This document shows, in pieces, positions 40,007 through 53,869 of a stretch of 64,000 nt of DNA (within the stretch, counting starts at the first letter, position 1; each line of letters begins with the position of its first letter). The notes beneath the pieces are model-generated. The model had not been told where the DNA came from. It worked only from the letters and a program-made list of their open reading frames with translations, and did not search any database. Source of the stretch: Eledone cirrhosa (taxonomy: Eukaryota); assembly GCA_964016885.1 (NCBI GenBank), contig OZ024753.1, forward strand, positions 25,482,001 through 25,546,000. Direction: 5' to 3'. Both the position numbers and the translations under genes were made by a program.

Positions 40007-43000
40007 AGGTGTGACTATGTAAGGTGTGGTAATTATGGTATGTGTCATAGGTGTGACTATATAAGGTGTGGCAAGGATGGTATGATGTGTCATAGGTGTG
40101 ACTATCTAAGGTGTGGCAAGTATGGTATGTGTCATAGGTGTGACTATATAAGGTGTGGCAAGTATGGTATGATGTGTCATAGACGTGACTATATAAGGTA
40201 TGGCAAGCAAGGTATGATGTGTCAAGGTATGATGTGTCATAGGTGTGGCAAGTATGGTATGTGTCATAGGTGTGACTATATAAGGTGTGGCAAGAATGGT
40301 ATGTGTCATAGGTGTGACTATATAAGGTGCGGCAAGGATGGTATGTGTCATAGGTGTGACTATATAAGGTATGGCAAGTATGGTATGATGTGTCATAGGT
40401 GTGACTATATAAGGTGTGGCAAGTATGGTATGTGTCATAGGTGTGACTATGTAAGGTGTGGCAAGGATGGTATGTGTCATAGGTGTGACTATGTAAGGTG
40501 TGGCAAGGATGGTATGTGTCATAGGTGTGACTATATAAGGTGTGGCAAGGATGGTATGTGTCATAGGTGTGACTATATAAGGTGTGGCAAGGATGGTATG
40601 TGTCATAGGTGTGACTATATAAGGTGTGGCAAGGATGGTATGTGTCATAGGTGTGACTATATAAGGTGTGGCAAGGATGGTATGTGTCATAGCTGTAACT
40701 ATATAAGGTATGGCAAGTATGGTATGATGTGTCATAGGTGTGACTATATAAGGTTTGGCAAGGATGGTATGTGTCATAGGTGTGACTATATAAGGTATGG
40801 CAAGCATGGTATGATGTGTCATAGGTGTGACTATATAAGGTGTGGCAAGTATGGTATGATGTGTCATAGGTGTGACTATAGCAAGTGTGGCAAGGATGGT
40901 ATGTGTCATAGGTGTGACTATATAAGGTATGGCAAGGATGGTATGATGTGTCATAGGTGTGACTATATAAGGTGTGGCAAGGATGGTATGTGTCATAGGT
41001 GTGACTATATAAGGTGTGGCAAGGATGGTATGTGTCATAGGTGTGACTATATAAGGTGTGGCAAGTATGGTATGATGTGTCATAGTTGTGACTATAGCAG
41101 ATGTGGCAAGGATGGTATGTGTCATAGGTGTGACTATATAAGGTATGGCAAGGATGGTATGATGTGTCATAGGTGTGACTATATAAGGTTTGGCAAGGAT
41201 GGTATGTGTCATAGGTGTGACTATATAAGGTGTGGCAAGGATGGTATGTGTCATAGGTGTGACTATATAAGGTGTGGCAAGGATGGTATGTGTCATAGGT
41301 GTGACTATATAAGGTGTGGAAAGGATGTTATGTGTCATAGGTGTGACAATATAAGGTATGGCAAGCATGGTATGATGTGTCATAGGTGTGACTATATAAG
41401 GTATGGCAAGTATGGTATGATGTGTCATAGGTGTGACTATATAAGGTATGGCAAGTATGGTATGATGTGTCATAGGTGTGACAATATAAGGTATGGCAAG
41501 CATGGTATGATGTGTCATAGGTGTGATTATATACGGTGTGGCAAGTATGGTATGTGTCATAGGTGTGACTATATAAGGTGTGGCAAGTATGGTATGATGT
41601 GTCATAGGTGTGACTATATAATGTGTGGCAAGTATGGTATGTGTCATAGGTGTGACTATATAAGGTGTGGCAAGTATGGTATGATGTGTCATAGACGTGA
41701 CTATATAAGGTATGGCAAGTAAGGTATGATGTGTCAAGGTATGATGTATCATAGGTGTGACTATATAAGGTGTGGCAAGGATGGTATGTGTCATAGGTGT
41801 GACTATTTAAGGTATGGCAAGTATGGTATGATGTGTCATAGGTGTGACTATATAAGGTGTGGCAAGTATGGTATGTGTCATAGGTGTGACTATATAAGGT
41901 GTGGCAAGTATGGTATGTGTCATACGTGTGACTATATAAGGTGTGGCAAGTATGGTATGATGTGTCATAGGTGTGACTATATAAGGTGTGGCAAGTATGG
42001 TATGTGTCGTAGGTGTGACTATATAAGGTGTGGCAAAGATGCTATGTGTCATAGGTGTGACTATATAAGGTGTAGCAAGGATGGTATGATATGTCATAGG
42101 TGTAACTATGTAAGGTATGGCAAGGGTGGTATGATGTGTCATAGGTGTGACTATAGAAGGTTTGGCAAGAATGGTATGTGTCATAGGTGTGACTATATAA
42201 GGTGTGGCGAGGATGGTATGTGTCATAGACGTGACTATATAAGGTATGGCAAGCATGGTATGATGTGTCATAGGTGTGACTATATAAGGTACGGCAAGAA
42301 TGGTATGATGTGTCATAGGTGTGACTATATAAGGTGTGGCAAGTATGGTATGTGTCATAGGTGTGACTATGTAAGGTATGGCAAGGATGGTATGTACCAT
42401 AGGTGTGACTATATAAGGTATGGCAAGCATGGTATGTGTCATAGGTGTGACTATATAAGGTGTGGCAAGAATGGTATGTGTCATAGGTGTGACTATATAA
42501 GGTGTGGCAAGGATGGTATGTGTCATAGGTGTGACTATATAAGGTATGGCAAGTATGGTATGATGTGTCATAGGTGTGACTATATAAGGTATGGCAAGCA
42601 TGGTATGTGTCATAGGTGTGACTATATAAGGTGTGGCAAGAATGGTATGTGTCATAGGTGTGACTATATAAGGTGTGGCAAGTATGGTATGATGTGTCAT
42701 AGGTGTGACTATATAAGGTATGAAAAGGATGGTATGTGTCATAGCTATAACTATATAAGGTGTGGCAAGTATGGTATGATGTGTCATAGGTGTGACTATA
42801 GAAGGTTTGGCAAGAATCGTATGTGTCATAGGTGTGACTATATAAGGTGTGGCAAGGATGGTATGTGTCATACGTGTGACTATATAAGGTGTGGCAATGA
42901 TGGTATGTGTCATAGGTGTGACTATATAAGGTATGGCAAGGATGGTATGTGTCATACGTGTGACTATATAAGGTGTGGCAAGGATGGTATGTGTCATAGG

Positions 43001-44593
43001 TGTGACTATAGAAGGTTTGGCAAGAATGGTATGTGTCATAGGTGTGACTATATAAGGTGTGGCAAGGATGGTATGTGTCATACGTGTGACTATATAAGTG
43101 TGGCAAGGATGGTATGTGTCATACGTGTGACTATAGAAGGTGTGGCAAGAATGTTATGTGTCATAGGTGTGACTATATAAGGTATGGCGAGTATGGTATG
43201 TGTCATAGGTGTGACTATATAAGGTATGGCAAGGATGGTATGATGTGTCATAGGTGTGACTATATAAGGTATGGCAAGTATGGTATGATGTGTCATACGT
43301 GTGACTATAGAAGGTGTGGCAAGAATGGTATGTGTCATAAGTGTGACTATATAAGGTGTGGCGAGGATGGTATGTGTCATAGGTGTGACTATATAAGGTA
43401 TGGCAAGTATGGTATGATGTGTCATAGGTGTGACTATATAAGGTGTGGCAAGTATGGTATGTACCATAGGTGTGACTATATAAGGTATGGCAAGCATGGT
43501 ATGATGTGTCATAGGTGTGACTATATAAGGGGTGGCAAGGATGGTATGATGTGTCATAGGTGTGACTATATAAGGTGTGGCAACTATGGTATGTGTCATA
43601 TGTGTGACTATATAAGGTGTGGCAAGGATGGTATGAGGTGTCATAGGTGTGACTATATAAGGTGTGGCAAGGATGGTATGATGTGTCATAGGTGTGACTA
43701 TATAAGGTGTGGCAAAAATGGTATGATGTTTCATAGGTGTGACTATATAAGGCGTGGCAAGGATGGTATGTACCATAGGTGTGACTATATAAGGTATGGC
43801 AAGCATGGTATGTGTCATAGGTGTGACTATATAAGGTGTGGCAAGAATGGTATGTGTCATAGGTGTGACTATGTAAGGTATGGCAAGTATGGTATGATGT
43901 GTCATAGGTGTGACTATATAAGGCGTGGCAAGGATGGTATGTGTCATATGTGTGACTATATAAGGTGTGGCAAGAATGGTATGATGTGTCATAGGTGTGA
44001 CTATATAAGGCGTGGCAAGGATGGTATGATGTGTCATAGGTGTGACTATATAAGGCGTGGCAAGGATGGTATGTGTCATAGGTGTGACTATATAAGGTGT
44101 GGCAAGGATGGTATGTGTTATAGGTATGACTATATAAGGGTGGCAATATGGTATGTGTCATAGGTGTGACTATATAAGGTGTGGCAAGCATGGTATGATG
44201 TGTCATAGGTGTGACTATATAAGGTGTGGCAAGCATGGTATGATGTGTCATAGGCGTGACTATATAAGGTGTGGCAAGTATGGTATGATGTGTCATAGGT
44301 GTTACTATATAATATGTGGCAAGAATGGTATGATATGTCATAGGTGTGACTATATAAGGTGTGGCAAATATGGTATGTTTCATAGGTGTGACTATATAAG
44401 GTGTGGCAAGGATGGTATGTGTTATAGGTATGACTATATAAGGGTGGCAAGTATGGTATGTTTCATAGGTGTGACTATATAAGGTGTGGCAAGGATGGTA
44501 TGTGTTATAGGTGTGACTATATAAGGTGTGGCAAGTATGGTATGTTTCATAGGTGTGACTATATAAGGTGTGGCAAGTATGGTATGTACCATA
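40007..44593. repeat. ~4.6-kb minisatellite, 39/42-bp unit gtgtcataggtgtgactatataaggtgtggcaaggatggtat(gat), ~110 copies
   Basis: Direct inspection. Confidence 0.97.
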
Positions 44594-45699
44594 GACGCCA
44601 CCTAGACAAGGAACACTATCTACTAAAGTAAAATAAGCTATGGTCGGAGAGTGAGAAAAGAAAGTTCTACGATGAGTGAGAAACACTATGGTGGTTGGAT
44701 TAATGAACGCAATTAGTACTTTTGAGATGATTCTATTGTTATCTGAAAGATGAGTTTCAAATATTTGGGCAGGGGTGCAATTTCACTGCTTGCCATAGCA
44801 GAGCTTCCTTTGCAGTTTTAGAAGTGGAGGGGCTTAAGTATATATACTGCATGTACATGTGTATTATTATTAGCTCACACATTTTATCACTAAGACGAGA
44901 CTAAGAAAGAAATTAAAAGCCTTCTCACTCCTGTTGGAGGAATTCCTCCCTGGTTGACCTCCACTGCTTTCTGTTTGGTTATCGTAATGCCAGGTGTGAA
45001 GCTGCTCTCATCATGGCCAATTGTGTATTGTTGAAGTTACTTAACCCATAGTTGGGGGGAATGACCATGAACTCTGAGGAGTTCATACACCCTTTTAATA
45101 ACTCTTGTTTTTTGTGCTGCTGGGTTCAACTTACCCTCCTCATCTGACCAGGGTCTGATGGGAGGGCCAGTTTAATCGCCGACTACTCGACATGAAGCAG
45201 GTTGTATTGGGTTACATGGTACCAGTAGCATACAGAAGCCTGATCTGGCCACAGCTCTAACCATGTGTTTATTTTGTTTGATAGTTGATCCAACCATAGC
45301 TATCACTGCCTTTGTTGAAGCCAGACATGTAGATGAAGGTGAAGTGGTAGAAATTATTTTTCGTTATATTTTCTTTTGAAAGCTCTCAAGAGGTAAGGAG
45401 TGGGATTTGCTATAAAAATCAAAACTGGTAAAAGATCTGAACCTGTGCCCACCCCCACACCCATACACACCTTCCGTACCGCTTTGCTTCTTGGTTGTCA
45501 TCATTTGCAGATAGCTGATCTCGTAGGCTTGAGAGAAATGCCTTCTAAATAATTTTTTAAAAGGCTCTTGGGAAAGATTGGCTACATTTCATAAACCTCT
45601 CAAGAGGCAGTTGTACAACTGTGGATCTTTAAATACCAAACTGATCTGTAATAAATCAAAATTTCACAAAAGTAGTGGGGCCTGACTGACCGCTTCTGC

Positions 45700-46710: not shown

Positions 46711-47804
46711 ACCAGATAGAAAAATGCGTACAGCAAAAAAAAGTAATATTGTTGGAATATAAACCTTTAAAAATACAGGACAAGAAACTAAAATAAAACT
46801 TTAAAAGAATAGGACAAGAAACTAAGATAAAACTTTGAAAGAATAGGACAAGAAACTAAGATAAAACTTTAAAGAATTGGACAAGAAATAAAAAATTTTA
46901 CAATAATATTATTTGCAAAATTTTTATTGGTAAAAAATCGAGTTCCACATTCATAGGCTCTGGGTTCCACATTCAGAGGTCGTCGTCAGACCGGGGGATC
47001 ATTTTATCCTGGTTTGAACACCAATTGGGCCATAACCATACCCCTATTTCATCATTCGGCGACACGCCTCATGTGCCATGCATAATGTGAATGGGCCCAT
47101 GGGCCCATGAGCACAGATCTTGAGCAGCAGCGGACGGTCTTGTCGTCCCGCTCATCCTTGATCTTGACCAACCCGTCCATCTTCTCCTTGCATCTTGTCC
47201 TTGAGTTCAAGTCCGGCAGTCCAGATGAATGCATGCCACAGCTTTCTGGTACAGGAAGGGGGAGCAGGAGGACTGGAGGGATGACGGGACAGAGGGAGGG
47301 AGGACCGGTGGTTGAGGGAGGTGCCGTAGTCGGTGGTCAGAGTCGACATCTTGTCCCGGTCGTCTTCTCCATCTTCGTCTGGTGTTGCGGGACCAGAAGT
47401 GCATTCTTGGAGGAGACCTGCAGCTGCATCGGCCAATTCTTCTTGCAATGGTCATTCTGACGGAGCAGAACTGCTCAGCCAACCAACCCCAACCAGAACC
47501 AACCGCTCAGGGGCAACGCACAATGAGAGCATGACAATTATTATGCACTAATCAAGAAGATACTGGGGCATAGCACAGGAAACGAATAAAAAAATTTTGC
47601 CACTAATATTATTGTAAAATTTTTTATTTCTTGTCCAATTCTTTAAAGTTTTATCTTAGTTTCTTGTCCTATTCTTTTAAAGTTTTATCTTAGTTTCTTG
47701 TCCTATTCTTTTAAAGTTTTATTTTAGTTTCTTGTCCTGTATTTTTAAAGGTTTATATTCCAACAATATTACTTTTTTTTGCTGTACGCATTTTTCTATC
47801 TGGT
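46711..47804. mobile_element. Foldback-like unit: ~220-bp inverted repeats (46711-46930 / 47585-47804) around a GC-richer ~650-bp core
   Basis: Arms are near-identical and contain 3-4 tandem ~34-bp subunits (aggacaagaaactaagataaaactttaaaagaat); no clear TSD. Confidence 0.7.
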
Positions 47805-48077
47805 CTACTATTTTTTAAGGCAATGCAAGCAACAACTATCTAATAATTAAATGATCATAGTGAATTACTGACAAGTGATTGACATTTTAAAGTTCTTTTG
47901 AGTATAATTGCAATCTAGTTGAGGCAACTGGCTTAATGACAAATCTAGTAAATCATGAATGCATTTGAGATGATTAGTGCATAATAGTGAATTGGTGAAA
48001 CTTGTGCATTTCAATGGTGTTACAACAATAGATGTAAGTTATATAGTAGTAATACTTTATCATTTTAACTTTTTAGA

Positions 48078-48437
48078 ATGGACAAAAACCCATGCAAAGA
48101 AATGACTTTGACTGCAGTGATTCTCTCCAATTTACTTACAAAGCAAAACGTGGTCAAATACCTTATCATCTCTGATAAAATGCCCATTGAATCACTGAAA
48201 ATCGGAAGCATGGAATTCCTCATAAAATGCACCTATGAATCGGAAGCCATCACATATATCAATGGATATAGGGAGTTGTTCACACTGGAAGACCATCACT
48301 TCATTTGTGACTTCATCAGTTATCTCCACGATTATCTCAGACACCCAATGCCATTGATGAGAGGTGATCCAATGTGTGAGCATGTAACTAATCTTATAGA
48401 AGTTGTTATCGACCACCTGGCTTTTAGTGACATTTGA
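48078..48437 (+). CDS. Orphan 119-aa ORF of unknown function
   Basis: Open, non-repetitive ORF directly preceded by a 43-nt gtaagt...ttttag intron-like segment (48034-48076); no recognisable motif. Confidence 0.4.
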   Translation: MDKNPCKEMTLTAVILSNLLTKQNVVKYLIISDKMPIESLKIGSMEFLIKCTYESEAITYINGYRELFTLEDHHFICDFISYLHDYLRHPMPLMRGDPMCEHVTNLIEVVIDHLAFSDI

Positions 48438-48604
48438 CTGATTTGACTGATAATGATGTATGTGTACATTCTTGTTACTATTTTAAGGCAATGCAAGCAA
48501 CAACTATTTAATAAAATTTAAATTTAAAAATGACCATTGTGCATTACTAGTATGATGACATTTTATTAAGTCACAAAATTAGTCAGTCAGCCATAGAACA
48601 AGGA

Positions 48605-49400
48605 TCAGGTGGCAAAAACATTGGCAAAAATTTGTGTCAATTTAAGATTTCCAACATTGTTCAAATGAATCATATCTGGTTTGAAGTCAGATTTGTCAAA
48701 TTTTGACCAATTTTCAATGTTGTGAAGATTGGGCAAGTTCAATTTTTGAATAATTTCTTTCATGCAGTAATTAAACTTTTCCAAACGAGAATTTCTCTTG
48801 CCCAAGTCATTTTTATTTTCAATTACACTTTGTGGACGTGGAATGACACCACTGTAGAAAATGGGTGTACAGTGGTGCTTTTCCGCTATTTTCTGTAGCC
48901 TTGCAAAGAGACTCTTCTCCTGTTTTTCCGGTTTTGTGCCTCGAATGGGCACTTTGTCCTTAATTTACAAATAAATGATTAATAAAAAATACTTGGGCAA
49001 AAATTATTGTATTACTTTGCACAGCTTTGTAGTGCTAACGGTGCGACGAGGATTCAGATCATTAGAGCCGACATGAACCACCAATACTTTCACAAAAGGA
49101 CAGCAGATAACAATGTTGGCGATTAACATTACCTGGCCCTGATGGGCCCCAGGTATACAAAATATCTAAGTATTTTTGTTGGTATGATAAGTAAATACAT
49201 TTGAATTAATATTTTTAAACCTTCTGGTCATTCGATTTCGCCACATTTCTAATTATGGATTTGTAAAAACTGGCATGAATGTGAATTTGATCAGTCCAAT
49301 TGCCCGATTTTAGTGAAAAGTTTTGATTCGAAATGGAAATACTCCATTTCCGTGCCATTGAAAAAATGAATAAGCCGATCAAAAAGCCACGAAACATCAT
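48605..49400 (-). CDS. SGNH/GDSL hydrolase (esterase), 3 exons: 49400-49221, 49165-49016, 48958-48605; ~227 aa
   Basis: Two phase-0 GT-AG introns (55 and 57 nt) join SIIRNV (block I Ser), FCIPGA (block II), LVVHVGSND (block III), IFYSGVIPR and KPDMIHLNNVG (block V DxxH) into one open frame. Confidence 0.75.
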
Positions 49401-49439
49401 TTTTAATTAAGCGAAATTAGTGGATGCAAATCTCAGAAA

Positions 49440-49826
49440 ATATTGTACACTATTCGCACCTATCGCACTATTCGCACCTATCGGTACAAAAATATAGCGC
49501 ACTATTCGCACCTATCGGTACAAAATATCGCACAACTGTTAATAATACTAGAAGTGCAAACTATCTGTTGAATACCTGGTATATGAAGAGCAACCGATAC
49601 GATCGGTCGGCGATCGGTCTTGAAGAAGAATGAAGAATGAAGTGAAATTTTGGTCTGGTTGTTGTTATCGGTGTTTCGCAGAGATGCCGTCACGAACAAA
49701 GGTGTCAGTGACACAAAGTTGTCCGCTTGAACAAAGGTGTCGGTCCGACAAAGGTGTCAGTCAGACAGACAGTCAGACAGTGTCACAGTCGGTGCAACAA
49801 AGCGATCGATGCGATTAAAAAAAATT
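49440..49826 (-). mobile_element. Helentron/HINE (DINE-1-like) terminal region
   Basis: Minus strand starts at a T-run, then a short palindromic subterminal segment, a (TGTC)n-like tract, repeated gacacctttgt motifs and atctctgcgaaacaccgat...accaaaatttcac; tandem cactattcgcacctatcg repeats. Family assignment is pattern recognition. Confidence 0.5.
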
Positions 49827-50549
49827 TAACTCACATGTTTACCTATATTTTCGCAAACTATTGATAGATTGGTACAAAAAATAGCTTTGATAATAAACAT
49901 AAATTTTTAACGAAGTATTTAAAAAGCATTTTAGCAGTGAAAAGTGAAGTAATGTTTCACACTGACGCAAGTAGGGCCGTTCAGAAATGACGTAGTCAAT
50001 TAGGAGGAGGGGATTCGGCGATTTGACTACATTTGACTAACGTAATCACAATCACAAGAGTTCCGCCGAAAAAAATTCGTCATTTCTGGATTACCTCCCC
50101 TAGCGTCACGCTTACTACTCACTCACTTGAACACAAGATTTATCAGCAAACTTTGATTATAAACTTTTTCCCACTGGACCAAATTTCTAGATTTTTAATG
50201 CGTAAGGATTTACTGTTCATGCTCATATAAGTTTTATCTCAGTTAAATAAAGGAGAGCCGCGCTGTACTGTCGTAAACAGAGGATTGCCAACGAAAACAC
50301 GACCACAACAATATTGCTAAACTAAATATAAACGGACTACCGTCCGTTTAGGATGGTGTCTTCAGGATGACCAAGTGGTTAAGAAGTTCTCTTCGCAATC
50401 AGGGCTGGATTTACCAATAGGCATAGTAAGTCATCGGCCTAGGGCCCACAGGTACATACTCTCTCACACACACACGCATATATATATCTGTGTGTGTGTG
50501 TGTGTGTATGTGTGTGTGAGTGTATTATGTATGTGAAAAACAAAGTCCT

Positions 50550-52556: not shown

Positions 52557-52656
52557 GTAATAAGAGTACTGGTGGTAGCAGTAGTAGTAGTTATTATTGT
52601 TGTGGTGATAGTTTTACTTCAGTTGTGTTTCTCAGTTTAGGCCACATGTTGATAAT

Positions 52657-53067
52657 ATGGAACACAAGAGACAGCAATCACAATCAAACAAGATCGAATT
52701 CATTATCGGTGGTTTAGCTACATCAGGTGCAGGAGTTTTTACCAATCCGCTTGAGGTTGTAAAAACCCGCATGCAACTACAAGGTGAATTGAAGGCTAAG
52801 GGTCGCTACACAGTGCACTATCGTCATGTGTTCCATGCTTTTTATACGATTGCCCGAAATGATGGTTTTATTGCATTACAAAATGGCTTAGTACCTGCAC
52901 TATGGTACCAGTTTTTCATGAACGGTGTGCGACTGGGATCTTTTCAAATGTTCGACAACATGGGCTTTACACGAAGCAAGGATGGCCGTATTAGTTTTCC
53001 ACAAAGTGTTGTGGCAGGTGCCCTTGCTGGCTGTATAGGAGCAGCTATTGGTAGTCCCTTCTATATG
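52657..53067 (+). CDS. SLC25A35: Mitochondrial carrier SLC25A35/SLC25A34-like (yeast Oac1 family), first coding exon, 137 codons
   Basis: [18 protein letters not shown] carrier signature, [35 protein letters not shown] then phase-0 donor gtaagt; the next exon was not found in the window. Confidence 0.88.
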
Positions 53068-53869
53068 GTAAGTACACTTTAGAACTTTTCTTTTCATATT
53101 TTTACGCATTACAGGTTTAATTCATACGGTATCAACAAACGATAACAGTCTTTTGAATGCAGTAACAATTTAATGAGGGTAAACTTAGAGAAAATGTGCG
53201 TAATTTAAAGTGAAACCGGTAATAATAATAATATTTGTAAAAATATAAAATGAAATATAAATAAATTTGAAAAAAAATTCAAACTTTTTTATTCCTTTTT
53301 TTTTTAAAACAAAATAATAATAATTTTTATAATGATAAAATAAAATATATTTTTTAGTCTAGCATCCTGGCGTAGTGAAATAAATCGATAAGCTGTTGTT
53401 TTTACTGTTGTGGAGTAGCCAGGCATTTATTTCTCTTCTGTAAACTTTTAAATAAATAATCGTATTTTTAGTTAATTTTCGTAACGAGTTGACGTTTAAA
53501 AGAAAAAAAAAGTTTTATTTTCAATAATCATAAGTTAGGCATTTCTATGTAATAAATGGGTTACCATTTTTAATTACGCCGCTTTTCACTAATTTTATCC
53601 AGCAAGCTGTTGTCCTTAGTCCCTGCACCGACTGCCGATTTCCTCCGCAAATTCAGAAAGGCAGCAGCCCCCGTGAGGTGGAGTGGTTGTTGTAGTGGGT
53701 GTCGCTGGTCTTTCTGTCTGTGGGACATAACCGAATCACTACTCAGACTAAGGGATAGAGTCTGTCCCTCTCTTTCTCCCTTTCGTTCATTGCTTTATTT
53801 TCTTTTTTATTTTTTTTCCTTCTCTGCCTTTTGTTTCATTTAAATATTATTATATTGTCTAACTTCACT

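Follow-up and report, generated by a model that had tools for sequence, protein, structure and literature searches.

A deletion copy of an HLE2-group Helitron-like element in Eledone cirrhosa, with HLE1-type ends and a kilobase terminal fold-back

The window analysed here, a 64,000-nucleotide stretch of the Eledone cirrhosa genome, holds a 3,642-bp non-autonomous element in minus-strand orientation (Table 1). The original prediction described a discrete unit unlike its flanks, and the shared ends of dispersed copies bear this out. Its left limit was correct to 1 nt (46712). The right limit had been set at 49826; the copies share a limit 527 nt further on, at 50353, and because this is the true right end, the repeats at 49696-49790 that were read as a terminus are internal. 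A second terminus had been reported as not found; both exist. The similarity between the cassette and its dispersed copies is not due to chance. A search of the host's own genome (40 scored of 725 candidates) yielded 27 other near-full copies at 95-98% identity on several chromosomes. Exact genome-wide counts reached 315 for the 27-nt 5' end, 845 for the arm end and 405 for the inner junction, with controls at 0 throughout, and together imply at least ~400 dispersed copies. The 29 best copies, a sample biased to young ones, differ from their majority by a median of 1.0%. No second match to the cassette was found within the 64-kb window, and no head-to-tail junctions were found in 206 loci.

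The target of the element is A|T, without target duplication. Both end motifs were present in 46 of 79 pooled sequences; in these the flanking base was A in 46/46 and T on the other side in 45/46, in place of the TT target that had been anticipated. Empty paralogous sites outside microsatellites (L010, L042, L060) show neither gain nor loss of bases, and most other empty-site matches are TA runs and hence uninformative. Read on the minus strand, the element runs from TC through a hairpin and a 13-nt repeat to the inverse repeat, T-runs and CTGG. One G-C pair of the hairpin is swapped to C-G in a sister family. The 5' subterminal repeat of the window copy carries one mismatch and an adjoining 11-nt insertion, and near the 3' end there is only a weak palindrome. 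Rfam gave no match in 5 loci. The host mitochondrial-carrier exon noted nearby was confirmed at 52612-53079 (PF00153 E=7.9e-22), and the window copy is a dead passenger ~2.3 kb before it, measured from the element 5' end. Elsewhere in the window, units of 42/45 nt are repeated in tandem over 4.6 kb (40007-44594), and GC skew there is strong.

Table 1. Positions of the element and its parts within the window.
Feature	Position	Strand	Basis or remark
Whole non-autonomous element, 5'-TC...CTGG-3', between host A and T	46712..50353	-	Shared ends of dispersed copies, flank counts, empty sites
Outer arm, holding the 3' end and about four 34-nt repeats	46712..46925		Repeat analysis
3' subterminal inverted repeat, 30 nt from end	46742..46754	-	Sequence; identical in sister family
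Loop, 664 nt, 53% GC, no assignable gene	46926..47589		Inverted in 2/119 oriented copies
Inner arm, inverted copy of the 3' end	47590..47803		Majority equals outer arm at 214/214 positions (60 copies)
A-run motif beside inner arm, similar in related families	47804..47835	-	Older copy at 48476-48565
119-codon orphan ORF, gene status unproven	48078..48437	+	Open in 21/29 copies; dN/dS 0.91
SGNH last exon (DxxH block)	48605..48958	-	PF14606 E=0.0024 (below curated cut-off), splice model
SGNH middle exon (blocks II and III by eye), flanked by introns of 55 and 57 nt	49016..49165	-	Splice model
Remnant of NADAR/SGNH junction exon, beginning just after GDS	49221..49256	-	Comparison with long copies
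First RepHel ORF codons, fused to SGNH remnant	49257..49400	-	Comparison with long copies
Short internal repeats (18- and 17-nt units), 5' non-coding part	49448..49790		Repeat analysis, copy comparison
5' subterminal inverted repeat, 13 nt	50306..50318	-	Sequence; majority of 29 copies
5' hairpin, GGTA loop, 9-bp stem in window copy (10 bp in most copies)	50329..50350	-	Fold

Three intact genes had been proposed for this interval; the esterase is broken, and both orphan genes are unproven. The window esterase is a chimaera of 34 RepHel codons and the tail of a spliced NADAR-SGNH gene that has lost its GDS. At the deletion junction (49257/49256) ~9 kb is missing, with a 1-nt overlap. Because this deletion joins just after GDS, the 213-aa frame has lost its first strand and, from block I, the G-D, and from its sequence it is likely inactive. 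The SGNH similarity originally reported holds, at a score below the curated cut-off (Table 1), and the intact gene does not. The micro-introns were correctly seen: two of 55 and 57 nt have GT-AG borders and preserve the SGNH reading frame, and a further GT-AG stretch, 43 nt long (48034-48076), sits just ahead of the ATG of the 119-codon ORF. That ORF has no homologue in Pfam, NCBIfam or the Atlas (best score 0.88, a lead only), and its single-sequence fold gave a pLDDT of 46. Open frames of 86-124 codons on both strands of the fold-back loop have no family match. In the loop of the sister family (L093:4471-5085), which has no convincing homology to the window loop, a 205-codon frame shows a PHD-finger-like Cys/His pattern by eye and no Pfam match. 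Values of dN/dS range from 0.91 to 1.18 among 27-29 copies for the SGNH exons and the orphan ORF, and are uninformative on the source elements. Remnant esterase and orphan ORF are likely passengers without function in the window copy.

Long copies were reached through divergent SGNH matches and 5' ends. In the parent, the cargo gene is placed after RepHel. Four GT-AG introns (55, 217, 54 and 57 nt) in one long copy give an unbroken 335-aa NADAR-SGNH frame; in a 12,628-bp copy the cargo is frameshifted in its last exon. NADAR (PF08719) profile positions 4-67, 82-116 and 120-162 fall in order on three consecutive exons, with E-values of 0.0028, 0.039 and 0.019 when the exons are scanned singly, each below the 35.1-bit cut-off; the Atlas score for NADAR is 0.93, with low recognition. 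The third of these exons continues into IVGDS and then into the SGNH blocks, of which I (GDS), II, III (GxND) and V (DxxH) are recognisable by eye in long copies; the SGNH profile match itself lies below the Pfam cut-off. The search for the first NADAR exon gave five copies. Homologue searches of limited sensitivity returned nothing for the SGNH exon and, for the NADAR exon, one repetitive protein that was not alignable. Contigs of two runs compared with one long copy contained no intron-skipping joint, a result that says nothing on expression. An SGNH hydrolase gene in a Helitron has already been published as fish texim (PMC4021074), and NADAR is known as retroelement cargo (PMC12477816); neither NADAR nor GDSL appears in the available portions of the HELIANO text and supplement (PMC11417382). 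LINE ORF1 and Gypsy proteins also carry SGNH and NADAR domains (PMC4021074; PMC12477816), so a retroelement may have been the source of the cargo.

The window unit is a 9-kb internal deletion of a 12.6-kb HLE2-group Helitron-like element. The genome-wide search for longer copies with Rep-helicase put forward in the original prediction did find them, including one complete copy of 12,628 bp (G000:C28 42.936-42.949 Mb). Pfam recognises PF20209 (DUF6570, E=1.9e-14), PF14214 (Helitron_like_N, Rep, E=1.8e-27) and PF05970 (PIF1, E=1.2e-24) in the long copies, with PF00443 (UCH) after the helicase. The long-copy frames gave no match to Exo_endo_phos (APE endonuclease), and the parent ORFs none to reverse transcriptase or capsid families. 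Before Rep motif 2, where F/Y-W-R marks HLE2, the long copies read YFWRLEYQQRGAPH and two HLE1 controls LPH; G and P are separated by A, a departure from both the S and the L given in PMC4067079. In a Rep tree of 51 sequences, from which 45 relatives were dropped to keep it small, a long branch separates the HLE1 controls from these elements. The protein, together with 13-nt subterminal repeats at both ends, within the 11-18 nt of HLE2, places the element in that group.

The fit to named groups is mixed. An APE endonuclease after the helicase, the strict mark of a Helentron, is absent, and a parent without endonuclease speaks against the DINE/HINE membership that had been proposed. The canonical HLE2/DINE-1/HINE T|T target and 3' stem-loop are also lacking, and the hairpin lies 5' relative to RepHel. 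The ends are those of HLE1 (5' TC, 3' CTRR, A|T target, no duplication), without the HLE1-type transposase or a short hairpin ~11 nt from the 3' end. What matches throughout is the description of a proto-Helentron: an HLE2 protein without endonuclease, a Helitron1-like 3' end and target, and a 5' stem-loop. These results support the broader idea of a gene-carrying rolling-circle element allied to Helentrons; a virus-like nature, also raised, finds no such gene in the long copies.

No unbroken RepHel was found in ten long copies of the window family, whose longest open frame is 1,174 aa, and a helper RepHel is for this reason only inferred. Deletion classes of ~1.5, 2.0, 2.35 and 3.6 kb keep the 5' end and, mostly, the 3' 1.2 kb. 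The sister family, at 88% Rep identity, includes one copy with a single stop in RepHel. A third family (59% Rep identity, ~12.8 kb; G000:C5 5.3666-5.3794 Mb, L094-L095, and C1, C2, C13, C14) has several unbroken 2,230-aa RepHel-UCH frames and 99% identity between copies, and is very young and possibly still active. Relatives with the same domains at 31-42% identity occur in other animals and metagenomes; two metagenome loci were too short to show ends. Three further observations concern these sequences. A 2A-like stretch ending GCVELNPGP, in which C takes the place of the usual 2A D, lies ~70 residues into the RepHel frame (L055:1390-1460); it is also present in the sister family and absent from the third, and 2A-like sequences are said to occur in non-LTR retrotransposons. 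A sister-family deletion copy is nested in a long window-family copy (G000:C28 136.46-136.48 Mb, L087-L089). On G000:C19, C20 and C27, many near-identical HLE1 Rep copies lie at ~100 kb spacing in one orientation, which suggests large tandem duplications.

The last 1,092 nt of the element consist of two 214-bp arms around a 664-nt loop. These are the internal direct and inverted repeats of the original prediction: in the window copy the arms, with their 34-nt tandem repeats, are 98% identical over 214 nt, and a computed fold pairs them in one long stem. The fold-back is present in the deletion classes seen. Sister-family arms match those of the window family at 163/179 positions, and 15/16 arm differences are found in both arms of the sister family. 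At 12/13 related RepHel loci, whose Rep identity goes as low as 47%, a terminal inverted pair covers 960-1,410 nt and finishes within or close to CTAG|T; the five sampled families group in a single clade with support 1.0. An alignment search supplied five distant loci (L139-L143; CBDBCZ01 and CBDBZY01 contigs, two MAG records), where single-protein scans of genome and viral contigs had found no distant relatives; viral matches from the alignment search were marginal. We infer that the contigs under bacterial MAG records are likely animal (host) DNA in bins. The distant loci encode RepHel with OTU, in two cases unbroken (2,165-2,179 aa). Four of the five begin A|TC with the GGTA-loop hairpin and a subterminal repeat, three end in a 1.07-1.2-kb fold-back, and in most a similar A-run motif adjoins the inner arm. 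No clear fold-back was seen at 1/13 related and 2/5 distant loci, nor in two HLE1 control stretches, which at only 8-9 kb may not include the ends.

The two arms homogenise; that they are re-made at each jump is unproven. In the non-repeat parts of 110 copies, 22 substitutions are mirrored between arms against a shuffled mean of 11.5, and 2/3,000 shuffles reach 22. With ~200 substitutions per arm set, mirrored changes account for roughly one in ten; most arm variants are unmirrored, and the commonest inner variant is seen in 8/36 copies. Length changes numbered 32 in outer and 12 in inner arms of the pooled set. This asymmetry was rejected as proof of re-synthesis when an independent set of 49 copies did not reproduce it (12 vs 9, p=0.66).

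Taken together, we consider it probable, at roughly 85%, that the window unit is a 3.64-kb deletion copy of a 12.6-kb HLE2-type element that likely spread in trans through the family RepHel, by rolling-circle (peel-and-paste) transposition. Counting against this reading are the absence of an unbroken RepHel from the long copies read, of a head-to-tail junction in 206 loci and of cargo homologues. Helraiser serves as the model for nicking, strand displacement and closure (PMC4778049). By analogy with it, RepHel would nick at A|TC, peel off one strand, close at CTGG|T (CTRR|T) and insert at AT. On this peeled strand the 214-nt arms would anneal to each other and form a panhandle in which the 3' end is double-stranded. 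We lean, with modest conviction, towards the panhandle serving as the signal for stopping or resolution, a part that falls to the small 3' hairpin in Helitron1. Such pairing would explain why the arms evolve together.

It is somewhat unlikely that the fold-back is instead a relic without function, left by a single ancient template switch or self-insertion at the 3' end, with its arms held similar by ordinary gene conversion between neighbouring inverted repeats. Self-insertion has been proposed for Fusarium elements (PMC5148889), the mirroring is only partial, and a fold-back may persist merely because it is placed at the end. One copy (L112:1360-1505) has an outer arm that overshoots the normal end by 84 nt, copies inner-side private variants and adjoins a perfect host palindrome, an arrangement that resembles repair after insertion. 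Against a relic, arm length (~100-230 nt) and span (~1.0-1.4 kb) are alike in families with little or no sequence in common in arms and loops, among them elements of 31% protein identity from other assemblies, and a similar motif lies beside the inner arm across families.

Quite improbable, in our estimate, is a scheme in which each transposition regenerates the outer arm on the template of the inner, through fold-back priming and a rolling-hairpin-like step that creates the 3' end anew. The arms of L139, L141 and L142 do match better within copies (0, 1 and 0 mismatches) than between them (3-5), and outer arms stop at different points. Two window-family copies, first picked up as pattern matches for inversion, prove to be cases in which inner-side sequence extends the outer arm past the normal end by 84 and 5 nt. 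Rebuilding of this kind is opposed by the absence of flip-flop. A parvovirus-like version was rejected on 2 inverted loops in 119 oriented copies (139 examined) and, by junction pattern, on 0 true inversions beside 194 standard junctions. The low share of mirrored substitutions also counts against it, in a tally blurred by later mutation and homopolymer hot spots.

With its 214-bp arms around a 664-nt core, the 1.1-kb fold-back looks like a separate MITE-like terminal-inverted-repeat element that landed at a Helitron end, a notion we judge very improbable. Outer and inner ends occur at ~1:1; the 845 arm ends and 405 inner junctions imply few or no free 1.1-kb units, and a free MITE was rejected on these counts. 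Furthermore, the inner junction has no target duplication, the arm bears the element's own subterminal repeat, and every related family has arms of its own. A virus-like cassette, or one derived from a retroelement, with three functional genes is hardly credible: SGNH and NADAR domains are known in LINE ORF1 and Gypsy proteins (PMC4021074; PMC12477816), but the parent encodes RepHel, its ORFs match neither reverse transcriptase nor capsid families, introns interrupt the cargo, copies show a dN/dS of ~1, and the ends and parent rule out this mode of spread.

The deletion-copy reading sets the element beside several described systems. DUF6570 is a marker of HLE2, and two HLE2 subgroups, c and d, are known to bear UCH (PMC11417382); these share both domains with our elements and differ in being found mostly in lungfish and axolotl. 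The closest match by description is the proto-Helentron of Phytophthora infestans, with an HLE2-type RepHel without endonuclease, 3' CTRR, an A|T target without duplication, a 5' stem-loop, short inverted repeats and extra cargo genes in 13-14 kb (PMC4067079; PMC11417382). HELIANO found it only in Phytophthora and reports no similar element in 404 species (PMC11417382). The present families differ in their animal host, in a 5' TC where the proto-Helentron has TT (PMC4067079), in the UCH-helicase fusion and NADAR-SGNH cargo, and in the ~1-kb 3' fold-back, of which the accessible descriptions of the proto-Helentron make no mention (PMC4067079; PMC11417382). HLE2-reverse elements of Fusarium (FoHeli3-5) likewise have a 5' hairpin adjoining the left inverted repeat, 13-16-nt repeats, no 3' hairpin and non-autonomous deletion copies (PMC5148889; PMC11417382); they differ in their TGCCT/CTCCTGT ends and lack an established target, and the sections consulted describe no long fold-back or cargo (PMC5148889).

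For the cargo, texim of fish is likewise an intron-bearing SGNH hydrolase gene tied to a Helitron; its 15 exons lie upstream of the Helitron ORF, and it is expressed in the testis (PMC4021074), whereas the SGNH gene here comes after RepHel, forms a fusion with NADAR and contains four short introns. NADAR is transposon cargo in Ectocarpus Gypsy and oyster Tx1 ORF1 too; these are retroelements, for which the relevant part of the report gives no SGNH fusion (PMC12477816). In the parts of the Octopus vulgaris repeat paper (PMC13282606) and of a Paramecium preprint (10.1101/2025.11.06.686955) that were available, such ends are not mentioned. A kilobase Helitron fold-back was not found in the literature searched; Repbase and Dfam lay outside that scope and may hold these families.

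The transposition mechanism of HLEs is known from one HLE1 element. The elements described here combine an HLE2 protein with HLE1 ends in an animal, a mix reported so far only in Phytophthora, and add to it a conserved kilobase fold-back. As a wider and rather doubtful proposal, a widespread animal HLE2 branch with proto-Helentron-like ends and UCH or OTU fused to RepHel would terminate replication by means of a 1-kb panhandle in place of a small hairpin, the inner arm serving as template for the outer in a step new to Helitrons, and the NADAR-SGNH enzyme of one family would strip host ADP-ribose or acetyl marks from the intermediates. Annotation software that looks for TT targets or 3' hairpins would overlook such ends or label them MITEs. 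Since several copies of the third family are near-identical and keep the 2,230-aa frame unbroken, what the fold-back does is directly testable.
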